From an uncultured Acidobacteriaceae bacterium (lineage in GTDB: Bacteria > Acidobacteriota > Terriglobia > Terriglobales > Acidobacteriaceae): a DNA stretch of 64,000 nucleotides. The DNA is taken from NCBI GenBank assembly GCA_963771535.1, contig CAVYTK010000004.1, positions 322,950-386,949 of the forward strand. Direction: 5' to 3'. Numbering within the stretch: the stretch's first letter is position 1; each line of letters starts with the position of its first letter. The notes under the pieces were generated by a model. The model searched no databases and was not told the DNA's origin. It saw only the letters and a list, made by a program, of their open reading frames with translations. The position numbers were made by a program, and so were the translations under genes. Shown piece by piece: positions 4,462 to 57,701 of the stretch.

Positions 4462-5789
4462 TTACCGGAATCTGTAGATGTTCCCATCCTGATCGGTTGT
4501 ATACACCGACGTTCCAAACACGGTGGGCCCGGTCTGCACAGACGAGTTGTCTCCAAACCAGCCGCTCAGGCTGAGACTGGTGCCGCTCACGTCAAATGCC
4601 TCTAGTTGTCCTTGTCCGTTGTTTGTCGTGCCGACGAAGATGATTTCATTGTTGCCCACGTTGGCGACCGCGGGAGACGAGAATTCGACTGGGCCTCCAA
4701 CCGACCCTGCCCAGAGCACTCCACCACCGCCGCTACAGCGGGCATCCACCTTCTGCAGGCCATGGCTGCTTCCAACGTAGGCAACCGGTTGCCCATTCTC
4801 TGTCACCAGAGCTGGCGAGGCATTGATCTCACCGAAGACCGGAAGGTACCCTGGATCCCAGCAAGCCTTCCCAGTATCGGCATCGTAGGCACGGAGCGAG
4901 CCTATGCTCGGAAATGCCGGCAGCGATGAGCCGATGAAGACGGTGTTGTTCAGAACCGCAGGTGCTGCCACAGTACTACCCGAAAAGCGCAGAATGCCTG
5001 CGAACTCAGGCGTGCCCCAGGCCTCGGAACCATCCCCATCGTTGAAGGCAAAGGTTTCCTGGGTGGTGGAATTCATGAAGGTTGCGATGATCACGTAAAC
5101 CTTCCCTTTGTGGTTGTGACAATCGACGGCGACGTGTAGAAGCCTTGGTAAGTAGCTCCCACGCCCTGGGACTGCCACACCGCCGCGCACTGCTTTTGGT
5201 TGTTGGTGCACTTGGCAGGATCAAATTTGTAGACGTGGCCGTCACCGCTGGGGGCATACACGAAGCCGTTGTAGATGGTCGGCGACGGTCCCTGGAACGT
5301 GGGGGAATTGTGGTTTGCCACTAATCCGTACCACAGCAGCGTTCCTTTCAACTCATCGATTGCATAGAGCTTGTCGGCGTCCATGGCATACACAACGTAC
5401 CGGGTGTCATCCACCGCGGGGGTTGAGTTGATGCTTCCCGATGCTAGTGAAAAGGGCGGCCACGCCTGGACGTTCTTGTCAGGATCCCAGGCGATCAGGT
5501 CACTGCCTCCATCGGCGAAAAGTAGAGTGTTGTGCGGAGGGAGCGGATTCAAGATCGTGTTGAGCTGGTCTACCACAACCTGGGAATTGAAGATGTAAGC
5601 GTAACTGCTGTTGTAGACCATACTGGGAACCATTGCTGCGACATTGGCCGGCTGCAGAAGGGACATTGAATTTTGCCCGGAGTGATTGGCGTCATTCCGG
5701 AACTGCCGCCAGCTGTTGTTGCTACAGCCTGTTAGGGCAAAAACAAGTAACAAGCCGGGCAGAAGCATTGCGATCTTTGGCTGTGACAT
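4462..5789 (-). CDS. PQQ-like/beta-propeller lipoprotein, apparently frameshifted
   Basis: ORF 5091..5789 starts with lipoprotein signal MSQPKIAMLLPGLLLVFALTGCSNN and has RBS GGAGGAG. ORF 4462..5211 continues the propeller in another frame (KGKVYVIIATF..., VAYVGSS, IIFVGTT, SVYTTDQDGNIYRF). The frames meet at ...SPSIVTTTKG|KVYVII... over the ccc/ttt runs at 5105-5109. Confidence 0.65.
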
Positions 5790-6206: not shown

Positions 6207-9200
6207 ATGGAACACAGCCTCTCGGCCTATGTCCGGTTCGGCGAGTTCGAGCTTGATTTGAAGAGCGGGCGGCTCTGCGGCAATGGCCAGGCTATCTACC
6301 TCGCCGAGAAGCCCTTTCGACTCCTTCTGGTACTGATCGATCACCAGGGTGGACTCGTCAATCGCGAGGACATCAAAAGGAAGCTCTGGCCCAACGACAC
6401 TGCCGTCGATTTCGAGCACGGAATCAATACGGCGATCAAAAGTCTGCGGCGCAGCCTAGGCGATTCCGCCGACCAGCCCACCTACATCGAGACGGTTCCT
6501 CGCCGCGGCTATCGCCTGATGGTTCCGGTGGAGCGCATCGTCGCATCCGTAGAGCCAGCGGGCTCACAGCTCGCGCGCCTCGCCGGAGGCCTCGCGGAAG
6601 GTCCCGGCGTACAGGCACCCCGGGGGGAGCTGATCGGAAGAACGGTTTCCCATTACCGCGTGCTTGGCATTATCGGCGGCGGCGGTATGGGCGTGGTCTA
6701 TCGCGCGGAAGACTTAAAGCTGGGTCGGGCCGTAGCCCTGAAGTTTCTGCCGGAAGAGTTGGGCAGCGACCCGCTTGCGCTGGAGCGATTCAGCCGCGAA
6801 GCGCGCTCCGCCTCCTCCCTCGACCATGTAAACATCTGTTCGATTCACGAGTTTGGCGAGCACGATGGGCACCCTTTCATCGTCATGCAATTGCTGGAAG
6901 GGCAGACATTGCGCGACCGTCTGATGGCCAGTCAGGGACCGCTTCCGCTGGCAGAGTTGCTCGACATTGCAATTCAGGTGAGTCACGGCCTGCAGACGGC
7001 GCATGACAAGGGCATCATTCACCGTGACATCAAGCCGGCCAACATCTTCCTCACCCGCAAGGGGGTCTGCAAGGTCCTTGACTTCGGCCTGGCCAAGCTG
7101 CTCGAAGCCGAAGAAGAAGCCGTTGCTGTGGCCGGTGCTTCCTCCGGCGCTTCGTCGTCAGTGCCCCTGGGCTTTACCCTGAGCCGGACCGGCTCGACCA
7201 TGGGAACGGCAGGCTACATGTCTCCCGAGCAGGTGCGGGGTGAGAAGTTGGACGCCCGCTCCGACCTCTTTTCCTTTGGCCTTGTTCTTTATGAGATGGC
7301 TACAGGACATCGCGCCTTCGGCGGCGACACGGCTGCGGTGGTTCAAACCGCTATCCTGCAAGCGGCGGCTGTGCCCGTGCAGGAGCTCAACCCAGCACTA
7401 CCTTCCAGGTTGATCGCCATCATCGACAAGAGCTTGCAGAAAGATCGAGAGGCAAGATACCAGACAGTCGCCGAGCTGCTGGCAGAGTTGCAGGACCTCG
7501 AGCTGGAGACCAAGCCCTCCCGGCCGTCGCGCTTCTGGCCCCATCACAAGGCATGGGTGGGCGCCGGCACCTTGGCTGTGCTTGGGATAGTTGGCGTGCT
7601 GCTGTACTGGCGTTCCCACAGGGCTGCACCGAACTTCGGCCAGCGAGGCACGGTAGTGATCTCCGACTTCGTGAATACCACGGGTGAGGCTGTATTCGAC
7701 GGCTCCCTGCGGCAAGCGGTCGCTTTACAAATGGGGCAGTCTCCGTACCTCAACGTCCTCCCCGACAACAAGCTGCGAGCCACTCTCCAGCAGATGGAAA
7801 AAGCTCCCGGCGAGCCATTGACGCCGGAAATTGCCGCTGAAATCTGCCTCAGGACGCACAGCAACGCCGTTCTTGCTGGATCGATCGCGCGCGTCGACAG
7901 CGCGTACCGGCTGATATTGAAAGCCCAGAGCTGCCAAACCGGAGATCCTTTCGAGGTTGTGGGGGCGCAGGCCAAAGACCAGAAGCAAGTGTTGCCTGCT
8001 TTGAATCAGGCCGCGAACGAAATGCGCAGAAGACTAGGTGAGTCTCTCGCCTCCGTACAAAAATTCGACCAGCCATTGCTCGAAGCTACCACCACATCTT
8101 TAGCAGCTTTGCAGGAGCTATCCAAGACCAGGGCCTATGGAACGCCGAGCGAGAATATTCCCTATGTGAAGCGCGCATTGGAACTGGATCCAAACTTCGC
8201 CTGGGCCTATGAACAGTTAGGTGCGAGCTATTGGAATGTGGGCGAGGGTAGTTTGGGAGCGCAATACATCTCCAAGGGCTTTGCGCTTAGGGACAAGGCA
8301 AGCCCGAGGGAGCGCTTCCAGATTGAGACCGCATACTACTCGCTGGTCACTCGAGAGTTGGAGAAAGGTGAGCAATCCGCCAGGGAATGGGCACTGAGCT
8401 ATCCCGGAGATTGGTCGCCGCATAATGCTTTGTCCATTATTTATGCCCAGGCCGGCAGGCCCGATGATGCGGTCCGCGAGATTCAGGAAGTCATCCGGCT
8501 GGTTCCGGAGAATCCCGGGGCGTATGGCAACCTGATGGAAATGGCCTGTGCCGCCAACAAGCTGAGCCTGGCGCAGTTTGCCTATGACCAGGCCCACAAG
8601 CGAAACCTGGATAGTCCGTATCTGCGTGAGTCGCGGTACATGCTGGCCTTCCTTCAGCAGGACGAGACGGCCATGCGCGAGCAGCTGCAATGGGCGGCGG
8701 GCAAGCCCAGGACGGAAGATGTGATGCTGCAGCATCAGGCGGATACCGAGTCGTACTACGGACGCATTCAGCGGTCGCGCGAAGTTGCGCGGCGAGCGGT
8801 AGAGTCTGCCAAGTCTGCCGATGCCATGGAAGCGGCTTCGCAATGGGAGCTACGGCAGGCGCTCGCCGAAGTTGAGTTGGGCAATTACAGCCGGGCCCAG
8901 CGGCTGACCGCCGACGCCCTCGCTCTGAGCAATGGGCGAGACAATCGCATCGTCGCTGCGCTCATCTATGCTCGCGCGGGAGACACCGCGAAGGCTAAAA
9001 GCCTGGGCGATGTACTGAATCAGGAGTTTTCCCTGGATACACTGCTTCAGAACGTCGCGCTCCCCAGTATCCGGGCAGCCACGGCACTGCAGCAGCACAA
9101 GCCTTTCCAGGCGATTGAGGTGCTCGGAGTAAGCGGACCTTACGAACTTGCTCAAGGTGGCATCAGCTACATCTACCCAGCTTATCTGCGTGGCCAGGCC

Positions 9201-14131: not shown

Positions 14132-15138
14132 CTAAAGCCGTGCCCTTTCAAAGCCGGCCCACACCTCAGCCGCCGCGACTACGGTGTTGGCGTGGATCGA
14201 AACCGTGTCCTCGACGTGATTGGCATAGCCGCCGGCGTAGGTGACCATGATCGGAATGTCGCGAGCGCGTGCCACGCGGAAGACCAGCTCATCGCGCTGC
14301 TTTAGCCCGGCGACCGTCAGGTTCAGCCGCCGAGCTGGTCTTCGCGGAAAGGATCGGCTCCGGCTACGTACGAGATGAGTTGCGGGTCGAACTGCCGCAG
14401 CGCTGAGCTGAGCGCGTTGTCCAGCCATGCCAGGTACTCTTCGTCGCTGCATCCGTCGGGCAGGTTCACGTCGATGGACGAAGCCGGCTTCACGTAGGGA
14501 TAGTTGTTCTCCTGATGCAGCGAGATGGTGAAGACGTCCTGCGAGCAGCCCTGCCTCATGTTGCCGCGACCGCCTTCGACGACAGGCGGCGAAGCCGACG
14601 GCAAAGTCGGAGAACTCGCCGCCGGCTTGCTGAAGATAGCCGCCGTGCCATTGCCTTGGTGAACGTCGCAGTCAACGGTCATGGCGCGCTGGATGAGCCC
14701 GCGCTTCTGCACCGAGCGGATGGCGACCGCGATGTCATTGATCATGCAGAAGCCCTCGCCGTGATCGGGGAAGGCATGATGGAAGCCGCCGCCGACATTG
14801 ATGCAGACTCCGTCTTGCAGCGCGCGCTCGGCTGCCAGGATCGAGCCGCCGGCGTGCAGCAGGAACGTGTCCACCACCTGCGGCGAGTAGGGGATCTCCA
14901 TCTGCAGCTCTTCGCGAACCGACAGGCTGCCTTCCATCAGCTTGTTGACGTAATGCGGCGAGTGCACCAGCATCACGTCCTGCTCGGAGGCCGGAGTCGG
15001 CGGTATGAGGTCCGAGGCGTCGACCACTCCCAGCTGCGTAAGGCGCTCGATGATGAGGCGGTACTTGTCGGCGCGGAAGACGTGCTCTCCGATGGGCAGG
15101 AAATACTTCTCGCTATAGACAAGTTTGAAGGGAAGCAT
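14132..15138 (-). CDS. Histone deacetylase / acetoin-utilisation (Zn-dependent deacetylase) family protein, apparently frameshifted near the 3' end
   Basis: Motifs: HHAFPDHGEGFCMINDIAVA, DCDVHQGNGTA, YVAGADPF. ORFs 14323..15204 and 14132..14452 join as ...FREDQLGG|LNLTVAGLKQRDELV... if one base is restored at about 14323-14330. Start ATG 15138 (MLPFKLVYSEKYF) is preferred over 15204, which abuts the divergent start at 15207. Confidence 0.8.
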
Positions 15139-15206
15139 GGCCGCGAGCACAAACAGGCGATTGTACTCCGCCGATGCACACGTGGGTACGTTAAGATGAC
15201 GCATTC

Positions 15207-19863: not shown

Positions 19864-21573
19864 CTACTGCAATGCATAGTTCACGAAGTTGCTGTAGTCC
19901 TTATGCATCTTGTCGTGAGCTGTCTGGTCAAGGTAGACCATGTGTCCTGACGCGTAATAGGTGAAAGCAATATTCTTGTGCAGGTCGGGCGTAACGTTCA
20001 GCTGGTTCATGGTGTACTGCGCGGCCAGGAACGGTGTTGCCATGTCATAGTCGCCCTCCATGACAAGAACCTTGAGATCGGGATCCTTGATCATGGCCGA
20101 GCGCAGCGCCGAGGCCACGTCGGCATATCCCATCTCGAAGCCGCCTCCGGGGAAGCCGGGATTGGGGCGAGCCCAGTTCCAGGTGAAGACGCCGGGGCCG
20201 AGATCGCGGGCTGACGTGTAGTAAGGCATGTCGACCTTGTAGTTCAGTTCGCGGCGAATGTAGTCGTTGAACACCGCGGTGAACGGGCCCTGAGTCGCCG
20301 CCGAGGTGGGATCGAAGCGCCCGTTTTCCAGAGCGCCGTTGGGAGCAGGGCTGGTATAGCGGCCATCGAGACGGCCGACAACTTTGCGCTGATCGGCGAG
20401 CAGCCATTGCATGAAGGTGCGAACGTCGATGCGCATGTTGGCCATCTGTACGACGTTTTTCGGCAGTCCGGTGTACTCGGCGACCTTGTCGATCATGGCG
20501 GAGCGCTCCTCGGGGCTGAGCGAGTCGCCTTTATTCAGCGCCTGCCAGTACTGGTTCATGGCAAAGTCGCTGACCTCCTGGCGGGTATGGTTCATGTCCT
20601 GCGACAGGTTGGGCGCAAGCTTGTGGTGATAGCCGGCGATCATGGTCATGGTCGGCAGGATGAGCGGGTAAGGCACGTCGTTGGTAGGAGCGAATTCGAG
20701 ACTTTCGAAATTCAGCACCATTGAAAGTAAGCAGATGCCGTTGAAGTTGATGCCCTTGTCGGACAGGTATCCGGCGACTCCGGCGGAGCGCGTGGTTCCA
20801 TAGCTTTCGCCGAGCAGGTAGAGCGGCGAGGACCAGCGCTCATAGCGCGAGATGTACATGCGAATGAATTCGCCGAAGGACTCGATGTCGCCCTGCAATC
20901 CCCAGAACTTTTTCGCCTGCTGCATGTCGGCAGGACGGCTGTAGCCGGTGCCGATGGCGTCGATCATCACGATGTCGCTGACGTCGAGCGGAGTGTAGGG
21001 ATTGTCATGCAGACGGTAGGGCGGCTGCGGCATCCAGCCTTCGGGCTGCAACACCACGGTACGCGGACCGAGCGCGCCCATGTGCAGCCAGATCGAAGCC
21101 GAGCCGGGTCCGCCATTGTAGGAGAAGGTCACGGGCCGCTTCGCCGGGTCGGCGCCATCGAGGGTGTAGGCGACGAAGAACATTTCGGCGTCGATCTTGC
21201 CGGTGGTGTCCTTGATGGGCATGCGTCCGGCGGTGGCGGTGTAGTGCAGGGTGCGGCCGTTGATGGTGATCTGGTGATGGGTCTGTACCGGGGCGACTTC
21301 TTTCATGTCCCAGTGATAGTTGGCGGCTGCGCCACCAGCGTGCTCGCCTTCGGACGCAGGCGCGGTGGACTCGTGACGCTGCTCCTGCTGCTGCTCGTGC
21401 TCACGCGTGGGCGCCTGCGGCGGCGCGGTTTGCGGCGGAGCCTCGGTGGCGTTCGATTGCGTGGCAGGGTTGGGATTGCGTACCCGTTCCCGAGGTGCTT
21501 CGGGCTGCTGGGCCACAGCGCCGGCCGCAAGAACCAGGGCCAGGGATGCGACGAGGGGAGAAACGATTTTCAT
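19864..21573 (-). CDS. Serine carboxypeptidase (peptidase S10 family), secreted
   Basis: Start moved to ATG 21573 (MKIVSPLVASLALVLAAGAVAQQ, RBS GAGGA). S10 motifs are FSYNGGPGSASIW and LLGESYGTTR (the GESYxG nucleophile elbow). Confidence 0.85.
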   Translation of the reverse strand: MKIVSPLVASLALVLAAGAVAQQPEAPRERVRNPNPATQSNATEAPPQTAPPQAPTREHEQQQEQRHESTAPASEGEHAGGAAANYHWDMKEVAPVQTHHQITINGRTLHYTATAGRMPIKDTTGKIDAEMFFVAYTLDGADPAKRPVTFSYNGGPGSASIWLHMGALGPRTVVLQPEGWMPQPPYRLHDNPYTPLDVSDIVMIDAIGTGYSRPADMQQAKKFWGLQGDIESFGEFIRMYISRYERWSSPLYLLGESYGTTRSAGVAGYLSDKGINFNGICLLSMVLNFESLEFAPTNDVPYPLILPTMTMIAGYHHKLAPNLSQDMNHTRQEVSDFAMNQYWQALNKGDSLSPEERSAMIDKVAEYTGLPKNVVQMANMRIDVRTFMQWLLADQRKVVGRLDGRYTSPAPNGALENGRFDPTSAATQGPFTAVFNDYIRRELNYKVDMPYYTSARDLGPGVFTWNWARPNPGFPGGGFEMGYADVASALRSAMIKDPDLKVLVMEGDYDMATPFLAAQYTMNQLNVTPDLHKNIAFTYYASGHMVYLDQTAHDKMHKDYSNFVNYALQ

Positions 21574-21749
21574 GATTTCCTCGAAGGATGTGGTTGGATT
21601 GCGATGAAGAGAAACTGTCGTAGTGGAGAAGGGCGCAGTAGAAAACACATCGCGGTGGCGATGATAAACCGTCACGAATGTTAAAGGGAAATGTATGGGC
21701 GATGACTATAGCGTAAACGGGGAGCCTGATCAGGACATGAGGGCTGCGA

Positions 21750-21900
21750 CTGTGGTGCTGCGAAGGAGAGCAGATCCCTCGCTGCGCTCGTGATGACAAG
21801 CCAAGAGGGCGCGGGATGGCAAAACGGGAAGGCTGGTGATGGCAAAACGAGAAGGCTGGTGATGACAAGGCGGCAAGGCTGGTGATGATAAATGGAGGCC
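21750..21900. repeat. Core repeat plus 23-bp minisatellite (GGCTGGTGATGGCAAAACGAGAA x about 4)
   Basis: 21750-21799 (ctgtggtgctgcgaaggagagcagatccctcgctgcgctcgtgatgacaa) matches 22222-22271 at 49 of 50 positions in the same orientation. Confidence 0.8.
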
Positions 21901-21957
21901 GGCCCAGGGCAACATCGGTTGCGAAACCGTGCATGTATGTCGTGATAGCGGCCGATG

Positions 21958-22191
21958 TTACTGGTTCTTGGGATGGACGCGGGCGTAGCGTTCCATGCGG
22001 CCTGTCCATTTGAGGAAGCGCAACAGTTCGCCGCGCTCGTGCCAGAGGAATCCGCAGAACTCGGGGAAGCCGATGCTCTGCATCTTCACTCCGCTATAGG
22101 TCTCGATACGCCAGCGCAGGTAGGGACTGCGCCAGGGCGCGAGATGATGGCCGCGGGTGGCGTTCCACAGGAACCGGAGGACGTTGCGCAT
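21958..22191 (-). CDS. Small conserved-looking hypothetical protein (77 aa)
   Basis: Internal ATG 22191: MRNVLRFLWNATRGHHLAPWRSPYLRWRIETYSGVKMQSIGFPEFCGFLWHERGELLRFLKWTGRMERYARVHPKNQ*. The upstream part of the listed ORF lies in the repeat element. Confidence 0.5.
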   Translation of the reverse strand: MRNVLRFLWNATRGHHLAPWRSPYLRWRIETYSGVKMQSIGFPEFCGFLWHERGELLRFLKWTGRMERYARVHPKNQ

Positions 22192-31910: not shown

Positions 31911-33201
31911 ATGCAATTTGAGCTCTTCGTAGCCGCGCGATATTTGCGGGCCAAGCGGCGGCAAGCTGTCATCGGAATCATCACCCTCATCTCCATCATC
32001 GGAGTTGCCGCGGGCGTGGCTTCGCTCATCGTGGCGCTGGCCATCAACAACGGATTTCGCCAGGACTTGCAGGACCGCCTGCTGGGTTCGATGTCGCACG
32101 TCAACCTGCTGCGGGTGGAGAGCGACGGCATTCGCAACTGGGAAGAGCTGCTGCAGCGCCTGGCGAAAGAGCCGCACGTAGTGGCAGGTGCTCCGGCGAT
32201 GTACGAGCAGGTGCTGATCTCGCGCGGAGCACATGCGCAAGGCGCGGTGTTGAAGGGCGTCATCCCCAGCTACGAACGCAAGGTCAGCGACATTCTCGAT
32301 TCGGTGAAGTCGGGCTCGGCCGCGCCGCTTGATCCCGGCGAGCGAGAAGGCGAGCGCGCCCCCTGACAGCGATGAGACGAATGGCTTGTCGGCGCGCGTG
32401 ACTGCCGGGCTGCCGCCGATCCTGCTGGGGCAGGACATGGCGAATTCGCTCGGCGCGCAAGTGGGATCGCTGGTGACCGTCACCAGTCCGCAAGGCGAGC
32501 TGACGCCCTTCGGCATCGTGCCCAAGTACGCGCGCTTCAAAGTGGTGGGCATCTTCAGCTCGGGCTTCTACGACTCGGACAATACATGGGGATTCATTCG
32601 CCTGGCCGACGCGCAGAAGCTGTTCGACCTGGGCGATGTGGTTTCGGTACTGGAGTTCAAAGTCGACGACATTTATAAAGCCGACCAGATTGGCCGCGAG
32701 TTGGAGCAGGCGGCGGGCAAGGGCTTCATGGCGACCAACTGGATGGAGCAGAACCGCGCGCTGTTTCGCGCCCTGCGGCTGGAGCGGCTGGTTACGTTCA
32801 TCACCATTGGCCTGATCGTGTTTGTCGCCGCGCTCAATATTCTGATCTCGCTGATCATGATGGTGATGGAGAAGACACGCGACATCGCGGTGCTGGTTTC
32901 GATGGGCGCGCGCAAGCGGCAGGTGCGCCGCATCTTCATGTACCAGGGGCTGCTGATTGGCGTGATTGGTACCGCGATTGGATTGGTGCTGGGCTACGGG
33001 ATCTCTTTTGTTGCCGGACACTATCGGCTGCTGTCGCTCTCGGCCGAGGTGTACTCCATCGACTACGTGCCCTTCGCGCCGCGGGTGCTGGATGGCGTGC
33101 TGGTGGCGTGCATCGCCATCGGGATTTCGTTTATTGCGACGCTGTATCCTTCGTGGTCGGCAGCCAGCGTGCTGCCGGCGGAGGCGTTGCGGTACGAGTA
33201 G
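31911..33201 (+). CDS. LolC/LolE-family lipoprotein-releasing ABC permease (FtsX fold), apparently frameshifted
   Basis: ORF 31911..32366 (MQFELFVAARYLRAKRRQAVIGIITLISIIGVAAGVASLIVALAINNGF...) joins ORF 32329..33201 (...ILLGQDMANSLGAQVGSLVTV..., FtsX module MEKTRDIAVLVSMGARKRQVRRIFMYQG, ending PAEALRYE). The frames join at about 32320-32366. Confidence 0.8.
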
Positions 33202-41030: not shown

Positions 41031-42702
41031 ATGAAGCGTATAGGTGTGCTGTTATGTTGCCTGTTGCCGCTGATGGCATGGGGGAGTCAACAATCCTCCA
41101 CCAGCCCTGACCCCCAACTCACCTCCCAACATAAGCAACTGCCGGGCGCGCCTACGCCCAGCAACGTGACGTATACGCTGCTGGCGTGGAGCGAGCTGGG
41201 AATGCATTGCATCGACGGCAAGGATTACTCGGTGTTTTCCGTTTTGCCGCCGTACAACGTGCTGCATGCGCAGTTGCTGCGCCGGGCCGAGCCGCCGGTC
41301 CCCATCACCAGCGGAGTCGTGATCACCTATAAGGCCAGTTTCGACGTTAATCGATCGCGCAATACGATCAGCTCGACTAAGACGAACTTCTGGAGCTATG
41401 TGCAGACGCTGTTCCACGTGAGTCCGCCGCCTGACCACGGCCTGAACGGCACTCCGGTACAGAGCAAGGGGCCCAATCCGCTGACCTATAACGCAACCCT
41501 GGGCTACTGGGAAGCGGCGGGAATTCCGACCATTCCTTATGACGACACGATGCAGAGCAACCCCTACCCGATGGTGACCGTCGAGGCGAGAGAGATCAGC
41601 ACCGGGGCCCTGCTGGCGACCGCTCCTGCCGTGCTGTCGGTGAGCGACGAGCTGACCTGCGGCAAATGTCACTCGTCCACCAGCGGCGACAACGACGCTA
41701 AACCGAAAAACGGATGGGAGAACGATCCCGATCCCAGCAAGGACATGAAGTTTAATATCCTGAAGAAGCACGATGACCGCTGGGACATCAGCTTCACCCT
41801 GCCCTACCTGCAACAGAATGGCTACAACTATCAGAACACGCTGTACGCCACGGCCAAAGGCGGAACGGCTGTTCTGTGCGCCGCCTGCCACGCAACCAAC
41901 GCGCTGGGCCTGACCGGAGTTCCCGGGGTGAGTGCCCTGACGGCGGATACGCACACTCTGCACGGACCGCAGATCAATTACGACAACGGCATCTCGCTGG
42001 ACAACCAGACTGATCCGCTCAACTCGTGCTACTTGTGTCATCCGGGAAAGGTCACGAAGTGCCAGCGCGGTCCCATGAACAAGGTGGCGTGCTTTGATTG
42101 TCACGGCAATCTCACCAAGGTTGGACAGAAGACCCGCGACGGATGGCTGGACGAACCCAGCTGCCAGATGTGTCATAACACCAGCCAGCGCGTATCTGAC
42201 TACCTTCGACGGCAATGGACAGTGGCGGCAGACCAGCGACCTGACGTTCGCTACCAATCCCGACAAGCCGTTGCCGGGCAAGAGCCTGTATCGCTATAGC
42301 TCGACGCATGGCGGAGTGTACTGTTCCGGCTGTCATGGCTCGCAGCACTCCGAATACCCCAGCTTGCAGGCGAACGACAACGTCTACAGTCAGCAAATCC
42401 AAACCTACACCGGCAAGCTGACGGAATGCAGTATTTGCCACACCAACGTCCCGGTGACTAACAATCAGGGGCCGCACGCGATGCATACCATCGGGCAGAG
42501 CTGGGTCAACGGGCATCCCCACTATGCAGAGAACGGGAAGTACACCGCCTGTGCCTACTGTCATGGATCGGATTACCGGGGATCATTCCTGTCGGCGACT
42601 CGCACCAATCGGACCTTCAATACGGAGAACGGGCAGAAGAACTTCACCGCAGGTCACCAGTTCTCCTGCTATGACTGCCACAACGGTCCAAACGGGGGAT
42701 AG
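41031..42702 (+). CDS. Secreted multiheme c-type cytochrome (nine CxxCH motifs), apparently frameshifted
   Basis: Signal peptide is MKRIGVLLCCLLPLMAWG. ORF 41031..42299 carries CGKCH, CAACH, CYLCH, CFDCH and CQMCH. ORF 42094..42702 carries CSGCH, CSICH, CAYCH and CYDCH. The frames join at ...CQMCHNTS|(S)AYLTTFDGNGQW... at about 42181-42195. Confidence 0.8.
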
Positions 42703-50453: not shown

Positions 50454-51483
50454 CTACTTCGGGGGACGGGTGATGGCCTCGCGCACATCGGCCAGCGGAG
50501 CGGTGTTCACCAACGTGATGGCACCGTCGGGGGCGCGCTGGATGCCCAGCTTCTGCCAGAGGGCAGGCAGATCTACGGGAGCAGGCTTGTCGCGCATCTC
50601 GTGATAAAGATCGACGAGGACATGCGTGCCGGTCGCCTTGTCGCCGACAGCAAATGCCTGCTCGATCTCCCAATCTCGGTTGATGTTGCCGCCCGCGTTT
50701 AAGAATGCCGCGGAGCGCATCCTGCAAGCCTTTGCGGTTATGGGTCTGCTCGTGGATGCGAACATCGGCAACCAGGCAGAACATCGCGCCTCCCCAATAG
50801 GTGCGTCCCCAGGTCGGGGTGCGATCGAGACCCTGGTCGCCGGATTGGGGTTCGCCTTTCGGCATATCGCGTACCACGTCATGCCACATTGTGGTAGGCG
50901 AGAGCTGGCCGGCCTGAACGCGAGCGACGGGCTCGACATAGGTGGAAATGCCTTCTTCAATCCAGTGATGCTCCTCGGCCATGGAGGGGAACGCGAGGTG
51001 GATCATTTCGTGGGTGAGCATCCAGTCGGTGTCGAGGTCTGACGTTGTGGTAGTAGCTCCGACGGAGATGCGGATGAGTCCCCCATTGTCAGAGGGGTAG
51101 GTCACGCCACCATGTACGCCCTCGCCGCCGCGTACGCTAACCTGCAACCTGAGCTGCGGTACAGGGAACTTGCCGTAGTAGGTGCAGACGGCGGTTGAGG
51201 CGCGCTTGATCCAGTTCAGCAGAGCGTCGTTGGAGATGCCCTTGGAATCGTTATCGAAGCGGATGTCAATGTTTGCGCCGCAGGCGGGCAAGCTCTGCGA
51301 GGAAATGGCGGATGCGGATCGCGACATGAAAGTAGCCACCAGAACTGCAGCTCCCAACACGACAACCGCCAGTGAGAAACGGACCCTCAGGTTGTGCCTA
51401 TCGCCTGACGACTGGCGTGCGCGCGGCCGTTCCCCGGGTATCGGCATCCACATTGGATGCGGAGGAAAGCCACTTGCGCTCAA
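50454..51483 (-). CDS. Secreted gluzincin-type (HExxH...E) metallopeptidase-like protein, apparently frameshifted
   Basis: The zinc motif is LTHEMIHLAFPSMAEEHHWIEEGISTYVEP. ORF 50098..51483 joins ORF 50454..50960 as ...KGLQDALRGIL|NAGGNINRDWEIEQAF... if the AAA run (TTT at 50698-50700 on the + strand) is read as AA. The start is uncertain (ATG 51483, 51453 or 51447) and overlaps the DoxX 3' end. Confidence 0.6.
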
Positions 51484-51920
51484 TTAAAGCGTCGAGCGAG
51501 AGGAATCCCGGACCGTAGACCAGGATGATCAGCGATGCCAGCCAGTAAGAGAACGGGGCGGCAGCGACAAACTTGTCGGGGTCGGAGAAGATTCCCAGAA
51601 ATGCGTCGTGATCGCCGGTGTAGTAGGCCACCGTCATGTTGCCGAAGAGCAGCAGCGCGATGAGACGGGTGCCGAGTCCGAGGGCCAGCAGAATTCCACC
51701 AACCAGTTCAAGAAGCGAAACCATCATTGCCGTCGCGCCGGGCGCGGGCAGTCCCGAGGCTTCCGAAGTACTCGGTCACCTTCGCGAGATGCGTCAGTTT
51801 GCCCCAGCCGTCGACGGCGAACTGGTATCCCCAGTAGAGCCGCACGAACAACAGGAAATAGGGTTGAACCGCGTTGGCGGCCTTCACAAACTGAGCGTAG
51901 AGCCTTTGCAGGGCAGTCAT
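51398..51920 (-). CDS. DoxX-family membrane protein, apparently frameshifted
   Basis: ORF 51708..51920 (MTALQRLYAQFVKAANAVQPYFLLFVRLYWGYQFAVDGWGKLTHLAKVTEYFGSLG) joins ORF 51398..51727 (MMVSLLELVGGILLALGLGTRLIALLLFGNM...). The junction ...SLG|LPAPGATAMMVS... forms if the GGG (CCC at 51753-51755 on the + strand) is read as GG. Confidence 0.75.
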
Positions 51921-52090
51921 GTTTTCGATCCTTGCTTTGAGTTGCAGTCGTAGGATTCAGAGGCCCTGGAAAAGTTACGGATATTCGGGGCCGAAGCCCC
52001 GGATGTTTACGGCGCAGGTGACGCTGACCTGAAGGTCGGCTCTACCCGAGCGTGCGAACGCGGCGCTGAAGCGGCGCACTACGCGAGCGT

Positions 52091-52960
52091 CTACGGTTTG
52101 CAAAACCATCCTGAGGCCGACCAATACGCGAACCACTTCTGCACATCGGCCATGGCTGCGTCGATATTGCGGCCGCTCCAGTCGACTTCATCCACCGCAT
52201 TGGACAGCGTGAGGCCCTGGCGCAGGGAAGTGAGAATGGTGAATGCTTCCTGGTCGATGCGTTTGAAGAAGACGGTGTTCTCGGCACGATGCACCGCCAA
52301 AAAAGTGCGCTCGGGTTTTGGAAGCCGGCGGCGGCGCGAACGGGAATGGGTGCGCTCGGTGACGGCGTTGCTCACGATGTCGGTTTCTTCCAGTTCGCTG
52401 CGAACCTTGATCAGCAGATCGTCAACCGGGTAGCTCAGATCGAGCAGCCGAATATAAGGCTGCAACTGGAAGTGAGGATCGGGACCGAGTGCGGGCAGAT
52501 CGGCTTCGGTGAGCCGCGGCCGGGCAGCTTCGTCGAAAGCTTCAATCTCGGCCCACTCCAGGCGCACCATGTCGAGTGCGATCTGCTCGTTGGCGGCGAT
52601 GTATTGCGGATGTTCGCTCAGCCATGACTGCAAGCGTGAGCCCAGGTTGCGCAGTGTGAACGACTGCGATGGGCACTCGTAGAGATATTCGACTGCCATC
52701 TTCTCAAAACGCTGCTCGCCGATGATGGCGCGCAGCCCGGGGAAATCCTCGGACAACGCCGAGAGAATGCGGAACCAATACTGCCGGTTGTAGATTTCCA
52801 GCCGCTCAAACGAGGTCAGCCGATCGTTGGGCTTGATGATTTCCTCGGCTACGGCGCGAAGCGACTTGCCCTCGCGCGAACGCTGCCGCATTCCTTCCTC
52901 GGCAGTGAGAGGCTGGCGGATGGCATCGAACATGGCGCGCTGAATGTGGTCGAGCGACAT
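52091..52960 (-). CDS. DUF2063-family protein (partner of DUF692/MNIO enzymes)
   Basis: Begins MSLDHIQRAMFDAIRQPL. The conserved block is LEIYNRQYWFRILSALSEDFPGLRAIIGEQRFEKMAVEYLYECPSQSFTLRNLGSRLQSWL. Its ATG 52960 overlaps the restored TGA of the upstream gene. Confidence 0.8.
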   Translation of the reverse strand: MSLDHIQRAMFDAIRQPLTAEEGMRQRSREGKSLRAVAEEIIKPNDRLTSFERLEIYNRQYWFRILSALSEDFPGLRAIIGEQRFEKMAVEYLYECPSQSFTLRNLGSRLQSWLSEHPQYIAANEQIALDMVRLEWAEIEAFDEAARPRLTEADLPALGPDPHFQLQPYIRLLDLSYPVDDLLIKVRSELEETDIVSNAVTERTHSRSRRRRLPKPERTFLAVHRAENTVFFKRIDQEAFTILTSLRQGLTLSNAVDEVDWSGRNIDAAMADVQKWFAYWSASGWFCKP

Positions 52961-53803
52961 CAGGCGCCTACCTTCTCGGCGACATAGCGATGGGCCTTCA
53001 GCGCCTCGTTGTGCACTTCGTCGAAGGAAGGAATGTGGTCGTCCCACTCCAGCAAGCGTGGCAGTCGGGCCGGTGAGCTCGATGGCGCGCGCGTACAGCT
53101 CCCACACGGGATCGATCACCGGATGGTCGTGCGTGTCGAGGATGTATTTCTCAAACTTCGAGTGGCCGGCAATGTGGATCTGCGCGACGCGCTCAGGCGG
53201 CACGCTGTTTACATAGTCGAAGGGATCGAAGGTGTGATTGCGCGACGACACGTAGATGTTGTTGACGTCGAGCAGAATGCCGCAGTCGGCGCGCTCGACC
53301 ACTTCGTTCAGGAACTGCCACTCCGTCATTTCGGAAGCGTGAAACTCGGCGTAGCTGCTGACGTTTTCGACGACTACCGGGACTTCGACGAAGTCGCGCA
53401 CCTCGCGGATCTTTTGCGCGGTTTTGGCGGCGGCTTCGAAGGTGTAGGGCATGGGCAGCAGGTCGTGCGAGTAGCTGCCGTCGACGCTGCCCCAGCAAAG
53501 ATGATCGGAGAGCCACGGCGTATTGGTGCGGCGCACCAGCGCTTTCAGGCGCTTCAGGTGCTCGCGGTTCGGTGGCTCGACGGAGCCGAAATACATGGAG
53601 ACGCCGTGCTGCACCACGCGATACTGCTCGAGAATCTGGTCGAGGATGTGCAGCGGACGGCCGCCATCGACCATGAAATTTTCGGAGATGATTTCGAACC
53701 AGTCGACGACCGGCTTTTTCTCCAGGATGTGGTTGTAATGCGGAATGCGAAGTCCGATGCCGACTCCGTAATCGGTGAAACCGTTGAAGCGATTGGCAGG
53801 CAT
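52960..53803 (-). CDS. DUF692 / multinuclear non-heme iron oxidase (MbnB/TglH/BufB-like), one apparent frameshift
   Basis: TIM-barrel DUF692 signature: MPANRFNGFTDYGVGIGLRIPHYNHIL...DWFEIISENFM...VQHGVSMYFGS...WLSDHLCW...VENVSSY...LLDVNNIYVS...IHIAGH. After ...ELTGPTAT the alternative frame gives the canonical end LLEWDDHIPSFDEVHNEALKAHRYVAEKVGA*. The break is at about 53050-53060. The track shows it fused to the next gene as one 570-aa ORF. Confidence 0.85.
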
Positions 53804-53889
53804 TGGAAAAATTCGTGGCCCAGGTGATTGCGAAAAGTTGATACGGGCCGAAGCTGGTTAACTCCGGCCCCTGTGATGAGTCAGGAGGG

Positions 53890-54171
53890 TTACTGGGGCG
53901 CCTTGGATCCGTCGGTGGCGCAGCCGCCCTTGCCCTTGCAGGAGTTCTTGCCCTTGCAGCCGTTGTCGCCGGTCTTGCAGCCGCCCTTGCCCTTGCAGGA
54001 GTTCTGGCCCTTGCAGGCGTGCTTGTCCTTAGAGAAATCGGCGGCAAAAGAGCCGTTGTCCGCGGAGGAAACAGTGCTGCTGCCGTTGTTGGTCTGGGCA
54101 ACCATGGTGCCGCCGGCCATAAAGCCGGCCAGAGCCGCGCCCATCATCAGAGACTTCATTGACTTCGTCAT
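53890..54171 (-). CDS. Sec-signal, 6-Cys RiPP precursor peptide (bufferin-like)
   Basis: ATG 54171 with RBS GAGGAG 9 nt upstream. Sequence: MTKSMKSLMMGAALAGFMAGGTMVAQT|NNGSSTVSSADNGSFAADFSKDKHACKGQNSCKGKGGCKTGDNGCKGKNSCKGKGGCATDGSKAPQ*. It lies 86 nt upstream of, and co-directional with, the DUF692 gene. Confidence 0.75.
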   Translation of the reverse strand: MTKSMKSLMMGAALAGFMAGGTMVAQTNNGSSTVSSADNGSFAADFSKDKHACKGQNSCKGKGGCKTGDNGCKGKNSCKGKGGCATDGSKAPQ

Positions 54172-54516
54172 TTGCTTAATTCTCCTCACCGTTTTTTTTG
54201 GAGCGGGCCACTGTCGAGTTGACCTCACCCAGATTGATTACGTGCGGGGTATCTTCCGGGATTTCTTCCCGCAAGGCAAATATTTTCTGCGCGAGATATT
54301 CGACATCCCCCACTTTGGTGGTACCGCCGGGTTAGGCAGTGAACCGGTGCCCAGCAATGTACCACGCTGTACTGCGAGGTAAGACGCGGCTTCCGGTAGA
54401 AAGTTACAGAGCGCGATATTTTGGTGGCGGCGGCAGCGGTTGTCACAAAATCCGGTCTTCGGAGTCAAACCGGCCATGAGAAGATGCCCACGAGAGAAGG
54501 AGTTGATCGGCGAACG

Positions 54517-55272
54517 ATGATATTGCATTCACCGCGGGAGCGCCCTGAGCCGTGGCAGGAAAAGCGCGCCGCAGCCCGTAATCCTTTTATGGTGCTGCTG
54601 CTGGCGCTGGAGTATCCGTTCGAGTGGCTGGCCTACGTACTTAGCCAGTGGGCGTTTCTGGAAGCGCTCGAATACCTGGGCAGCTTCTCCATTCTGATCG
54701 CGGTGATCTTCTATTTCAGCGAGTCGGGCGATCGCGTAAAGCAGAAGCACTACCAGGCGTGGCAGGTGATCAACACCGCGCAGGGGAAGGGCGGCAGCGG
54801 CGGACGCATTGAAGCCTTGCAAGAGTTGGAGCACGATGGCGTGCCCCTGGTCGGAGTCGATGTGTCAGGGGCATTTTTGCAGGGGCTGAGCTTGCCGCAT
54901 GCGCAGCTGTTGCGCGCCAACTTCAATGCGGTGGACGCCCGTAACAGCGACTTCCGCGATGCCGATTTCGTCGCGGCCAACCTGCACGCGGGAAATTTCA
55001 GGTACAGCAACTTCGCAGGCGCCAATCTTCAAGATGCCGACCTGGGAGAAGCCGACTTCTGCTATGCGAATTTGAGTGGCGCGAACCTGGCAGGCGCGAC
55101 CCTCGATGGCGCTGACATGGGAAGTACCGATCTTACGAACCTGAAATGGCAGGACATCAAGAGCGTGAAGGGGACCAGCCTGCAGGCGGTGCGCAATGCG
55201 CCAGCAGGTTTCCTGGAGTGGGCGGCGGCGCATGGCGCTACGACCAGTGGTGGGCCTTCGGACTGCCAGTAA
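54517..55272 (+). CDS. Membrane-anchored pentapeptide-repeat protein
   Basis: Two TM segments (FMVLLLALEYPFEWLAYVL, LGSFSILIAVIFYF) are followed by A(D/N)LxG repeats (ANLQDADLGEADFCYANLSGANLAGATLDGADMGSTDL). Start is ATG 54517 (RBS GAAGGAG), or alternatively 54484. Confidence 0.8.
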   Translation: MILHSPRERPEPWQEKRAAARNPFMVLLLALEYPFEWLAYVLSQWAFLEALEYLGSFSILIAVIFYFSESGDRVKQKHYQAWQVINTAQGKGGSGGRIEALQELEHDGVPLVGVDVSGAFLQGLSLPHAQLLRANFNAVDARNSDFRDADFVAANLHAGNFRYSNFAGANLQDADLGEADFCYANLSGANLAGATLDGADMGSTDLTNLKWQDIKSVKGTSLQAVRNAPAGFLEWAAAHGATTSGGPSDCQ

Positions 55273-55316
55273 ACGACGATTGTTGCGGATATGTAATTGC
55301 GGCGGCAGAGTTCCTC

Positions 55317-57701
55317 ATGCCGCAGTACCGCCATTCAGAGACAAACTTACATCCAACACTCCCAGTAGATCGCTATGGTTGGGGGTTGCTTTTGTTTGTT
55401 CGTGGTAAATGCCTGCGTTGGCGTTTCTGGGTCTGGATGATTGCAGTGCTTGCGCTGCTTGCACCAGCCTGGTGCGTGGCGCAGCAGACTGTCTCCGGAG
55501 TGGTGAAGGACCGCAGTGGAGCGGTGATACCGGCGGCGGCGGTTTCGCTGACGACGAACGGGACGGCAGTTCAGCAGACGACCAACGCGTCTGGCGTGTT
55601 CAGCTTTTCGGCGGTCGCGGTAAGCGCGGGCGACATCACCGTCTCAGCTGCCGGATTCGCGACTGTCACACAGCCGTGGCGTGCAGGCGATAAGACGCTG
55701 GTGATTGTGCTGCCTCCGGCGGCGATCCAGCAGACGCTGAACGTGACGGCGACGCGAACGGCGATCCTGCCGACGGGCGCTGAAGACCTCGAACTACAAC
55801 CCAGTACCACCATACTTGCGGCAACAGACCTGCAACAGTTTGGCGCAATCACGGTTGACGACAAGCTGCGACAGGTGCCCGGGTTTTCGCTGCTGCGCCG
55901 GTCGGGAAGCATGACGGCCAATCCTACTTCGCAAGGCGTCTCGCTGCGCGGATTGGGGGCGAGCGGCGCAAGCCGTGCGCTGGTGTTGCGCGACGGCATT
56001 CCGATTAACGATCCCTATGGCAGCTGGATTTTCTGGGGACGCGTGCCGGTGGCTTCGCTGGACGAAGCGCAGGTGGTGCCCGGCGGCGCGTCGTCGCTGT
56101 ATGGCAACGATGCGCTGGGGGGCGTGATCAACCTGGAGACGCGGCCGTCGGTGCTGACCAACTTCGCAGCTGAAGGTTCCTTCGGCAATAACAACACACC
56201 GTTTGGCTCGGTGTTTGGCGGGGTTCGCGCTGGGCAGTGGGCGGTGTCTGGCAGCGCCGAAGGTTTCAACACCAATGGCTACATCGACGTGCCCGCTAGC
56301 ATTCGAGGCGCGGTGGACACTCCGGTTTCGTCCGAACATGCGACCGGCGATGTGAAGGTCGAGCGATTCTTCGGCGACCGCGGGCGCATCTTCCTCGACG
56401 GCTCACTGTACGGCGAGCGCCGGGATAACGGCACTCCGCTACAGATCAACGCGGCTACGCTGCGCGAACTGGGCTTCGGCACCGATTGGCAGTCGCAGCG
56501 GGCAGGCGTGTTCACCCTGCGGCTGTTTGGCGGAACCGAGAACTATCATCAGACGTTTTCGTCCATCGGCCCAAATCGCAATAGCGAGTCGCTGACCAAC
56601 GACCAGCATGTTCCGGTGCAACAGATGGGGTTCATCGGCCAGTGGTCGAAGGCCATCAACGCAAAGTTCAGCCTGCTGGCCGGGCTTGATGGCCAGGACG
56701 TGCAGGGATGGAGCCTGGAAGAGTCGTACGTGCTCGGCAGGCCTACGGCGAGTCTGGCGAACGGAGGGCGGCAGCAGTATCTGGGAGCGTTTGTCGAAGG
56801 TATTTATCAACTGACGAGACGCTGGTCGCTGTCGGCGTCGGGCCGCGAAGATTTGTGGAGCAACTTCGATGCCAGCTCGTCGCGCACTCCGGTCGGCGGC
56901 AAACTCAGCAAGGTGTACTATCCCGCCCGCGGGCAAAACTCGTTCGACCCACGTGCCACCGTTTCGTATCGGCTCGACAACGGTACCGTGCTCTATGCCT
57001 CGGGCTATCGCTCATTTCGCGCGCCCACGCTGAACGAGCTGTATCGCAGCTTTCGCGTGGGCAATGTGCAGACCCTGGCAGATCCGTACCTCGTAGCCGA
57101 GCATTTTGCGGGATTCGAAACCGGCGTGCGCGCGTCGCTTTGGCACAACCGGCTGAATGTGAATGGAACATTTTTCTGGGGCTACGTGACCACGCCGATT
57201 GCGAATGTCACGTTGCAAGTTACCGATGCGCTGATCCTGCGACAACGGGAGAACCTGGGCAAGATTCGCGCACCGGGATTTCAGGTCGGGGCAAGCCTGC
57301 GAGTCACAGAGAAGATAAATTTTTCCGCGGCGTATCAATTTGTCGACTCGACGGTGATATCGTTTCCGGCGAACCCGGCGCTGGTGGGGAACTTGATTCC
57401 GCTGGTGCCGCGCAACAATGTGACGTTCCAGGGAACGTGGGCCGCGCCCCGGCGCTTCATGGTCGCGTTGCAGGGACGCGCCGCCAGCAATGAATATGAC
57501 GACGACCAGAACCTGCTGCCGCTGGGATCGTACTTCGTGCTGAGCGCCAGCGTGTCGCATCCGGTGTACAAGGGCGTGGACATGTTTGTCGCGGGAGAGA
57601 ACATTACCAACTCCAGCTACGAGATTGCGCGCACGCCGTACGTCAACCTTGGGCAGCCCATCCTGGTGCGGGTCGGACTGCGCTGGCAGAAGACCAGGTG
57701 A
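55317..57701 (+). CDS. TonB-dependent receptor with N-terminal carboxypeptidase-regulatory-like domain
   Basis: The CarboxypepD_reg-like segment is VSGVVKDRSGAVIPAAAVSLTT. The plug is ITVDDKLRQVPGFSLLRRSG...SLRGLGASGASRALVLRDGIPINDPYG. A long beta-barrel follows. The start is uncertain (ATG 55317, TTG at about 55386-55392, or ATG 55437), and the signal peptide ends AWCVAQQ. Confidence 0.85.
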   Translation: MPQYRHSETNLHPTLPVDRYGWGLLLFVRGKCLRWRFWVWMIAVLALLAPAWCVAQQTVSGVVKDRSGAVIPAAAVSLTTNGTAVQQTTNASGVFSFSAVAVSAGDITVSAAGFATVTQPWRAGDKTLVIVLPPAAIQQTLNVTATRTAILPTGAEDLELQPSTTILAATDLQQFGAITVDDKLRQVPGFSLLRRSGSMTANPTSQGVSLRGLGASGASRALVLRDGIPINDPYGSWIFWGRVPVASLDEAQVVPGGASSLYGNDALGGVINLETRPSVLTNFAAEGSFGNNNTPFGSVFGGVRAGQWAVSGSAEGFNTNGYIDVPASIRGAVDTPVSSEHATGDVKVERFFGDRGRIFLDGSLYGERRDNGTPLQINAATLRELGFGTDWQSQRAGVFTLRLFGGTENYHQTFSSIGPNRNSESLTNDQHVPVQQMGFIGQWSKAINAKFSLLAGLDGQDVQGWSLEESYVLGRPTASLANGGRQQYLGAFVEGIYQLTRRWSLSASGREDLWSNFDASSSRTPVGGKLSKVYYPARGQNSFDPRATVSYRLDNGTVLYASGYRSFRAPTLNELYRSFRVGNVQTLADPYLVAEHFAGFETGVRASLWHNRLNVNGTFFWGYVTTPIANVTLQVTDALILRQRENLGKIRAPGFQVGASLRVTEKINFSAAYQFVDSTVISFPANPALVGNLIPLVPRNNVTFQGTWAAPRRFMVALQGRAASNEYDDDQNLLPLGSYFVLSASVSHPVYKGVDMFVAGENITNSSYEIARTPYVNLGQPILVRVGLRWQKTR

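Follow-up and report, generated by a model that had tools for sequence, protein, structure and literature searches.

A probable five-gene variant of the Buf2-type bufferin operon in an uncultured member of the Acidobacteriaceae

A 64,000-nucleotide (nt) stretch of DNA from an uncultured Acidobacteriaceae bacterium (assembly GCA_963771535.1, contig CAVYTK010000004.1, positions 322,950-386,949 of the forward strand; hereafter the window, in which all coordinates are counted) was analysed around a group of minus-strand genes that probably make up a bufferin operon of the Buf2 ("Cys-Lys captophorin") type, here as a five-gene variant of an Acidobacteriaceae (Terriglobia) lineage. Bufferins, or captophorins, protect bacteria from copper and, as a group of ribosomal natural products, rank among the largest known; all of the studied examples of which we are aware come from Proteobacteria. 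From 54171 down to 51398, the open reading frames (ORFs) and their translations reveal four co-directional genes, for a precursor peptide, a multinuclear non-heme iron oxidase (MNIO), a DUF2063 protein, and DoxX. An earlier note on this DNA had taken these for a bufferin/gig-type operon of a peptide made on the ribosome and modified after its translation (RiPP), and all four genes were found at, or a few bases away from, the positions that it gave. Three elements lie beyond that description: a fifth operon gene (51453-50454), a promoter motif, and a hairpin after the precursor gene. The novelty is modest, and consists of the Terriglobia-wide five-gene variant, a conserved, putative promoter of the extracytoplasmic function (ECF) sigma type, the conserved post-precursor hairpin, and a clade of precursors that annotation models miss.

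The precursor, its maturation proteins and their class

Bufferins are Sec-exported RiPPs in which an MNIO and its DUF2063 partner turn Cys residues into 5-thiooxazoles that chelate periplasmic copper (PMC11626156, PMC12452194, PMC13097082). They were first described in 2024, and the number of MNIO-partner loci now exceeds 24,000 (PMC13097082). Buf1 precursors are DUF2282 proteins with four Cys, and those of Buf2 (BUF_6/12Cys) have six or twelve (PMC11626156, PMC12452194); in Buf2, a -4 Da shift was assigned to the central Cys and a disulfide to the outer ones, the precursor has a Sec signal, and expression is copper-induced and sigmaF-dependent (PMC11626156). A 2026 study named the products of MNIO-DUF2063 clusters captophorins, divided their precursors into DUF2282, Lys-Cys (EGKCG), and Cys-Lys (BufA2-type) groups, the last with the common motif NACKG, and found 5-thiooxazole to be general for such clusters (PMC13097082).

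The bufA2-like precursor gene (53890-54171, minus strand) was recognised from its ORF and translation, a match to the BufA2 model, and its homologues, and it is the 93-amino acid (aa) small ORF with six Cys of the earlier note. The protein starts with MTKSMKSLMMGAALAGFMAGGTMVAQ and passes through a variable Ser/Asn/Gly-rich linker into the conserved core DKHACKGQNSCKGKGGCKTGDNGCKGKNSCKGKGGCATDGSK, in which the Cys occupy positions 53, 59, 65, 72, 78, and 84. This 5-5-6-5-5 spacing is shared by 54 of 74 relatives, and Lys follows five of the six Cys (core motifs HACKG, NSCKG, GGCKT, NGCKG, and NSCKG). Over 104 precursor sequences, C59, C65, C72, C78, and C84 are invariant, and C53 is at least 90% conserved. 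By inspection, approximately residues 1-25 form a putative Sec-type signal peptide, with a basic n-region (K3 and K6) and the hydrophobic stretch LMMGAALAGFMAGGTMV; cleavage is probable between VA and Q, a site that aligns with the junction of HA and S in relatives.

The precursor family is built of a three-Cys half-unit, CKGxNxCKGxGGC. Members from 74 loci contain 4, 5, or 6 Cys and longer homologues 9 or 12, and the published "6/12 Cys" label thus misses some of them. Five Cys occur in L012 and four in L045 and L069, the four-Cys forms being those without the two middle residues; P0066, P0076, and P0082 have nine, and P0073, P0107, and P0112 have twelve. At least 7,542 homologues were found at E <=0.001, the best being 92% identical, and in cultured Edaphobacter and Tunturiibacter they still go under the names "hypothetical" or "low-complexity protein". 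The core matches NCBI BufA2 model NF050166 over model positions 16-65 of 79 (E 7.3e-10) with 38.9 bits, which is below the curated cut-off of 60 bits and thus outside the equivalog threshold; all 104 close homologues match the same model, although the best E-value among them is only 3.1e-11. No Pfam domain was matched by the precursor, nor was anything significant found among PDB sequences. With six Cys and no Pfam match, the peptide is, as the earlier note had it, not of the four-Cys DUF2282 type.

Family searches of MNIO and DoxX used reading frames restored by deleting one base each (the frame breaks are discussed below). Without the extra base at 53057, the MNIO gene, bufB (52960-53803, minus strand), encodes 280 aa that match positions 1-262 of 263 of PF05114 (MbnB_TglH_ChrH) with 355.6 bits and pass the NCBI bufferin-maturase equivalog NF050167, MNIO_BufB, with 347.5 bits (cut-off 310); the protein fails the HvfB (249.5 bits vs. 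a cut-off of 360), ApyH, ChrH, and MbnB models. Residues H66, H101, E146, D179, N182, H210, H214, D223, H225, and E252 are invariant in 81 MNIO sequences, and, in the light of MbnB and TglH, we take them to be candidate iron or other metal ligands. The MNIO genes of loci L001 and L002, whose products are 96% identical to that of the window, are intact. The nearest solved MNIO structure is PDB 3BWW (E 9e-49), a DUF692 protein of Histophilus somni from an MNIO-partner locus of the oxazolin/fontiphorin kind (PMC13097082).

Both the MNIO start at 53803 and the 86-nt spacer that separates it from the precursor gene had been given correctly before, as had the TGATG (52962-52958) in which the restored MNIO stop overlaps the ATG of the next gene. 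That gene, bufC (52091-52960, minus strand), encodes the 289-aa DUF2063-domain partner, which matches PF09836 over residues 6-114 with 60.7 bits (cut-off 27.2) and HvfC model NF050145 with only 44.1 bits (E 2e-11, cut-off 142); bufC is intact and colinear in relatives. The doxX gene (51398-51920, minus strand), whose ATG is at 51920, encodes a bufD/HvfX-like membrane protein of 173 aa without the extra base at ~51752; in the restored frame, the protein scores 72.6 bits against PF07681 (cut-off 23.6) and 59.3 bits against the narrower HvfX-family model NF050144, below its cut-off of 80. The profile hidden Markov model searches therefore bear out the DUF692, DUF2063, and DoxX assignments of the earlier note, with PF05114, PF09836, and PF07681 all above threshold.

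A scan with the MNIO, restricted to one genome per species, gave 590 confirmed relatives, and the best 80 loci were used for synteny. Almost all of these are from Acidobacteriaceae or other Terriglobia, with a few metagenome-assembled genomes labelled as other phyla. The order bufA-bufB-bufC-doxX is kept in nearly all 80, which establishes the small ORF as a genuine gene conserved beside that for MNIO, a point on which the earlier proposal depended. Two precursor genes, in tandem or duplicated, are present in L013, L020, L043, and L072, and L036 contains two whole bufA-bufB-bufC sets arranged divergently, back to back.

Among known systems, Buf2 of Caulobacter vibrioides (buf2ABC; BufA2 is CCNA_03001) is like the locus in its precursor with a Sec signal (putative in the window) and six Cys in Cys-Lys motifs, its BufB-type MNIO, its DUF2063 partner, the translational coupling of B and C, and apparent ECF-type stress regulation. 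The locus differs in possessing DoxX, which is absent from the Caulobacter buf2 operon (PMC11626156), in having a fifth gene for a secreted M61/M1-like protein, in the score of its precursor, below the NCBI BufA2 cut-off, and in its phylum, Acidobacteriota. Bufferin 1 and gig operons (buf1ABCD of Caulobacter; gig of Cupriavidus and Legionella) have the same order of precursor, MNIO, DUF2063 protein, and DoxX, and are likewise under ECF sigma control, which for the window is only putative; their precursors, however, have four Cys rather than six, the precursor here has no DUF2282 match, and no adjacent sigF-nrsF pair was seen in the window, although this was a weak test. The oxazolin (hvfXABC of Haemophilus influenzae) and fontiphorin systems of the EGKCG "Lys-Cys" group also combine MNIO, DUF2063, and DoxX with a secreted Cys-rich precursor, but the MNIO of the window fails the HvfB model and passes that for BufB, and its precursor has Cys-Lys motifs rather than repeats of EGKCG. 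Motifs of the NACKG type are not processed by FonBC (PMC13097082).

The earlier note had left a choice between the multi-Cys bufferin class and a new acidobacterial subclass. Because the core is of the Cys-Lys type, the locus belongs to a known kind, and the first of these stands; judged by sequence, the precursors are a divergent clade within Buf2 and not a new class. By analogy with characterised bufferins, the product would be a periplasmic peptide with modified Cys that binds copper.

The fifth gene

The gene that follows doxX (50454-51453, minus strand) has a 5' end that overlaps the doxX 3' end and, from a putative start codon, encodes 332 aa if an extra T at 50702 is left out. Its restored translation contains a Sec-type signal peptide and an HExxH...E motif, HEMIHLAFPSMAEEHHWIEEG; the motif reads HEMIH...WIEEG, and H106, H110, and E125 are invariant. 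No significant match to Pfam, NCBIfam, or PDB sequences was obtained, the Pfam Peptidase_M61 model scoring a weak 15.2 bits (E 0.028), below its cut-off of 22. An AlphaFold2 model based on 99 homologues has a predicted local distance difference test score of 92.6 and a predicted TM score of 0.91. In Foldseek, this model matches the M61 catalytic domains 7XYO and 8J9C (E 1.5e-8 and 4e-8, probability 1.0, TM 0.58-0.60), and the next matches, with probability and TM in the same range, are M1 aminopeptidases (ERAP/IRAP structures).

The predicted structure thus makes the fifth protein a gluzincin of M61/M1-like type at the level of fold only, and it is best described as peptidase-like. With M61 glycyl aminopeptidases and M1 aminopeptidases it has in common HExxH, a downstream Glu in (E/N)EG, and, in the model, a thermolysin-like catalytic fold. 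Sequence identity to those enzymes is, however, only 12-17%; at ~300 aa the protein corresponds to the catalytic domain alone, without their N- and C-terminal domains, and the spacing from HExxH to Glu is 14 residues where theirs is 18. At least 7,936 homologues exist, none with a Pfam domain or a name.

The association of the fifth gene with the operon was followed in both directions. Among the 80 genome loci, the gene lies directly after doxX on the same strand in 38, mostly at -19 to +50 nt, and it keeps that place down to ~50% identity; of the 53 full-length loci, 33 have it and 20 do not. The named isolates among the relatives (Edaphobacter, Tunturiibacter, and Granulicella) belong to the form that lacks it. 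In the reverse test, 80 metagenome loci were picked solely by homology to the fifth protein. The doxX gene is directly upstream in 54 of the 69 with enough upstream sequence, and where the upstream sequence reaches at least 3.2 kb (33 loci), the full colinear five-gene operon is present in 26, while in a further four the operon is adjacent but divergent (30/33 in total).

To our knowledge, bufferins have so far been thought to need only signal peptidase and no other maturation protease. It is conceivable, and we propose it only tentatively, that, in the five-gene form of Terriglobia, a minimal M61/M1-like zinc peptidase, secreted and coupled in its translation to DoxX, is dedicated to a periplasmic maturation step. 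That step could be the trimming of the variable N-terminal linker, or the cleavage of multi-unit (9- or 12-Cys) precursors. A published survey found additional conserved genes in bufferin clusters to be extremely rare (PMC12452194), and a literature search returned no publication that ties an M61-like protein to MNIO clusters.

The tentative maturation role is matched in probability by a plainer explanation, namely that the fifth gene is a mere neighbour coding for a general secreted peptidase (concerned, for example, with envelope turnover under stress) that does not act on the bufferin, so that the unit proper is a four-gene operon. The 20 full-length loci that lack the gene fit this explanation, as do two other findings. 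The wider family of the fifth protein is large (3,051 clusters at 50% identity) and includes two-domain forms of ~470 aa with no known link to bufferins; the family is therefore not exclusively a bufferin accessory. The precursor linker, moreover, is no longer where the fifth gene is present than where it is absent (first Cys at residue 54 vs. 56), and the trimming idea consequently gains no support. Characterised bufferins also need no dedicated protease (PMC11626156). Against it, the gene is tightly spaced from, or overlaps with, doxX in 38 of 80 loci and over such sequence divergence, the operon adjoins it in 30 of 33 loci selected by the gene alone, and the predicted zinc-binding residues of its product are invariant.

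Forms of ~470 aa comprise P0284, P0300, and some 55 of the 150 top cluster representatives; besides a signal peptide, they have an additional domain of ~190 aa at the N-terminus that no Pfam model matches. That such relatives are DoxX fusions was ruled out, because 10 of 10 checked (455-757 aa) have no DoxX domain. A lone ORF, P0170 (486 aa, on a 2.8-kb Logan contig), does fuse DoxX in frame to the fifth-gene protein, and may be natural or a sequencing artefact.

Regulatory elements and the proposed pathway

An ECF-sigma-type promoter-like motif, AATCC-N16-CGTA (AATCCCGGAAGATACCCCGCACGTA; 54239-54263, minus strand), begins 92 nt upstream of the precursor start codon. Of 74 genome loci, 28 have AATCC-N15-17-CGTA upstream of bufA (shuffled sequences gave a mean of 0.17 and a maximum of 2, and the reverse complement none), and so do 14 of 31 loci from an independent metagenome set (for shuffles, a mean of 0.04 and a maximum of 1). 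Its matches cluster just upstream of bufA, and the extended consensus is AATCC-N13-GnACGTAnT. In architecture the motif is like ECF sigma promoters, with a resemblance to GTAACC-N16-CGAA, the sigmaF site from which buf1 and buf2 are driven in Caulobacter (PMC3511200); from its conservation and form, we regard it as a putative ECF-type promoter. A second match in the window (32594-32569), inside a split LolE-like permease gene and on the opposite strand, is taken as chance because 0.84 matches are expected.

Querying with Escherichia coli RpoE finds ECF genes that adjoin the operon in ~20 of the 80 Terriglobia loci; in the published survey, sigma genes occur in Buf1 clusters and not in those of Buf2 (PMC12452194), so that in this respect about a quarter of the related loci depart from published Buf2 clusters. 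An adjacent ECF gene tends to go with the lack of the fifth gene (14 of 20 loci without it vs. 3 of 33 with it). The ECF genes lie downstream of doxX in L028, L039, L060, L063, and L067, and are divergent and upstream in L034, L047, L048, L061, L073, and L074; some of the ECF-flanked loci have a different upstream motif (CTGTTACC...TCTAACGGGG).

About 19-20 nt after the precursor stop, a GC-rich stem-loop, GGGCCGGAGUU-AACC-AGCUUCGGCCC (53845-53870, minus strand), is predicted by folding, with a short U-run 9 nt downstream. A stem of at least 8 bp is present at the same place in 74 of 77 bufA-bufB spacers (those of 76 relatives plus the window), although the sequences differ, and in 63 of the 77 it beats all 20 shuffles; a U-rich tract follows in about half. 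The hairpin is thus a candidate attenuator, acting by partial termination, or an mRNA-stabilising element, in either case one that would favour the precursor transcript.

The other spacer is quite different. The gap of 170 nt before doxX (51921-52090, minus strand) is as the earlier note measured it, and the repeats and hairpin said there to fill it do exist: two 33-nt direct copies with 73% identity (52021-52053 and 52058-52090) and a small hairpin, GGGGC-TTCG-GCCCC, at 51986-52002. No sign of function was found for them, and they were ruled out as a functional element. The spacer folds no better than shuffles (z = -0.66), its hairpin is altered even in a 98%-identical contig, and its sequence is not repeated elsewhere in the window; nor is it conserved, the best stem beating all shuffles in 0 of the 37 bufC-doxX spacers compared, whose median length is 45 nt. 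An Rfam scan of 51000-55000 at E <=1 returned no match.

The operon might then work as follows. A stress-responsive ECF sigma factor, encoded outside the window, would transcribe it from AATCC-N16-CGTA, and the hairpin after the precursor gene would cause the message for the precursor to exceed that for the enzymes. In the cytoplasm, BufC would present the 93-aa precursor to the multi-iron oxidase BufB, which, by analogy, would turn the central Cys59, Cys65, Cys72, and Cys78 into 5-thiooxazoles, leaving Cys53 and Cys84 to form a disulfide. Sec would export the peptide, signal peptidase would cut off ~25 residues, and the modified peptide would bind excess periplasmic copper. DoxX and the secreted M61/M1-like zinc peptidase-like protein would work at the periplasmic face, where the latter may shorten the exported peptide at its variable N-terminal linker.

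Several points weigh against this account, or against parts of it. Besides the subthreshold score of the precursor, AlphaFold2 (with 104 homologues) predicted no secondary structure and gave no usable model for that peptide, at a local distance score of 48.9, and the disulfide and modification pattern is therefore pure analogy. Neither the sequence of BufC nor a 61-sequence profile has a significant PDB match that would bear out a putative C-terminal RiPP recognition element-like domain. In Caulobacter, DoxX is dispensable for both modification and copper tolerance (PMC11626156). Finally, no ECF sigma gene was found in the window itself, in a weak test with the RpoE query.

The peptide might also be modified and yet serve some purpose other than copper buffering, be it another metal or hypochlorite or oxidative stress, or it might contain an oxazolone/thioamide in place of 5-thiooxazole. 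What is known of function comes from a small number of examples in Proteobacteria, and the precursors of Acidobacteriota make up a divergent clade. Gold and hypochlorite are among the stresses to which related operons respond, and there are fusions to MerC (PMC12452194, PMC7907618); the assignment of the heterocycle has also been disputed (PMC11252979 vs. PMC13097082). We nevertheless consider a different role or product unlikely: the enzyme scores above the cut-off of the BufB equivalog model, the core has the Cys-Lys motifs of Buf2, and every MNIO-DUF2063 product so far characterised binds copper and, it now seems, bears 5-thiooxazole (PMC13097082).

Frame breaks, neighbouring genes and significance

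In the sequence as it stands, the MNIO frame continues into the DUF2063 gene to give a 570-aa ORF, and doxX is divided into ORFs of 70 aa and 109 aa. The earlier note had remarked on one apparent frame break each in the MNIO and doxX genes; both are indeed present, and each is a single extra base, a G at 53057 and an A at 51752, by comparison with four relatives for each and with a 98%-identical contig. The latter also places an extra T at 50702 in the fifth gene. This contig (38.6 kb, assembly GCA_019702715.1, locus L081) is independent, contains the exact precursor sequence, and over 8 kb agrees with the window at ~98% identity. It has intact genes for MNIO (280 aa), for the DUF2063 partner (289 aa), and for the protein downstream (290 aa as called), and doxX is interrupted only by a 100-N scaffold gap (6339-6438) with duplicated flanks, because of which the DoxX call there (162 aa) starts too late. 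Codon differences between the window and L081 in four genes comprise 46 synonymous and 4 non-synonymous changes, indicating purifying selection.

Genes elsewhere in the window are split as well. In the LolE-like permease gene (31911-33201, plus strand), MacB_PCD and FtsX fall into different frames, a histone-deacetylase-like domain (Hist_deacetyl) is cut at model position 247 of 298, and a multihaem cytochrome is split; a partial S10 peptidase and a split pyrroloquinoline quinone (PQQ) propeller are also present. Regions with split or truncated genes, apart from that at position 50702, are 4462-5789, 14323-15204, and 19864-22009 (all minus strand) and 41031-42702 (plus strand). The split genes suggest a rate of about one indel in every 8 kb, such as a long-read assembly left uncorrected would have. 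Given the intact copy on L081, the mostly synonymous differences, and the splitting of other genes in the window, the frame breaks are very probably assembly errors, and the operon is probably intact in the organism. Were the breaks real, the MNIO would be inactive, because the invariant E252 and D254 lie after its break.

That the group is instead a decaying pseudogene cluster, with real +1 insertions in the MNIO, doxX, and fifth genes, an MNIO fused to the DUF2063 protein, and no modified peptide, is very unlikely, for although it would account for a single extra base in each of three successive genes over 2.4 kb, none inside a long homopolymer and the one in MNIO preceding E252 and D254, every gene is intact on the 98%-identical independent contig, the 46 to 4 ratio gives no sign of relaxed selection, the operon contains neither stop codons nor deletions, unrelated genes of the window are split likewise, and the nearest relatives are "MFD" metagenome-assembled genomes, which we believe to be long-read assemblies.

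A pentapeptide-repeat protein gene lies divergently upstream of the operon (54421-55272, plus strand); it has the same place in six of the eight closest loci (L001-L005 and L007), and a homologue is found elsewhere in two more loci. It is followed by a CarboxypepD_reg/TonB-dependent receptor gene (55146-57701, plus strand) that recurs, among the loci, in L001 and L002 only. No evident link of either gene to the operon was seen. The multihaem c-type cytochrome gene (MtrC/MtrF-like, with cytochrome c7 matches; 41031-42702, plus strand) is ~9 kb from the operon.

The locus indicates that Acidobacteriota, a dominant soil phylum, have a conserved version of the bufferin system that current annotation models miss, its precursors being labelled "hypothetical". 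It also points to regulatory elements that can be tested, the putative ECF-type promoter and the post-precursor hairpin, and the fifth protein is a candidate for an additional factor, in maturation or as an accessory. Should the peptidase-like protein leave the peptide alone, the locus would be one more ordinary member of a class already known. Should it act on the peptide, the pathway, for which only two enzymes and signal peptidase are thought to be needed, would gain a step, and an unannotated family of more than 3,000 protein clusters would gain a function.

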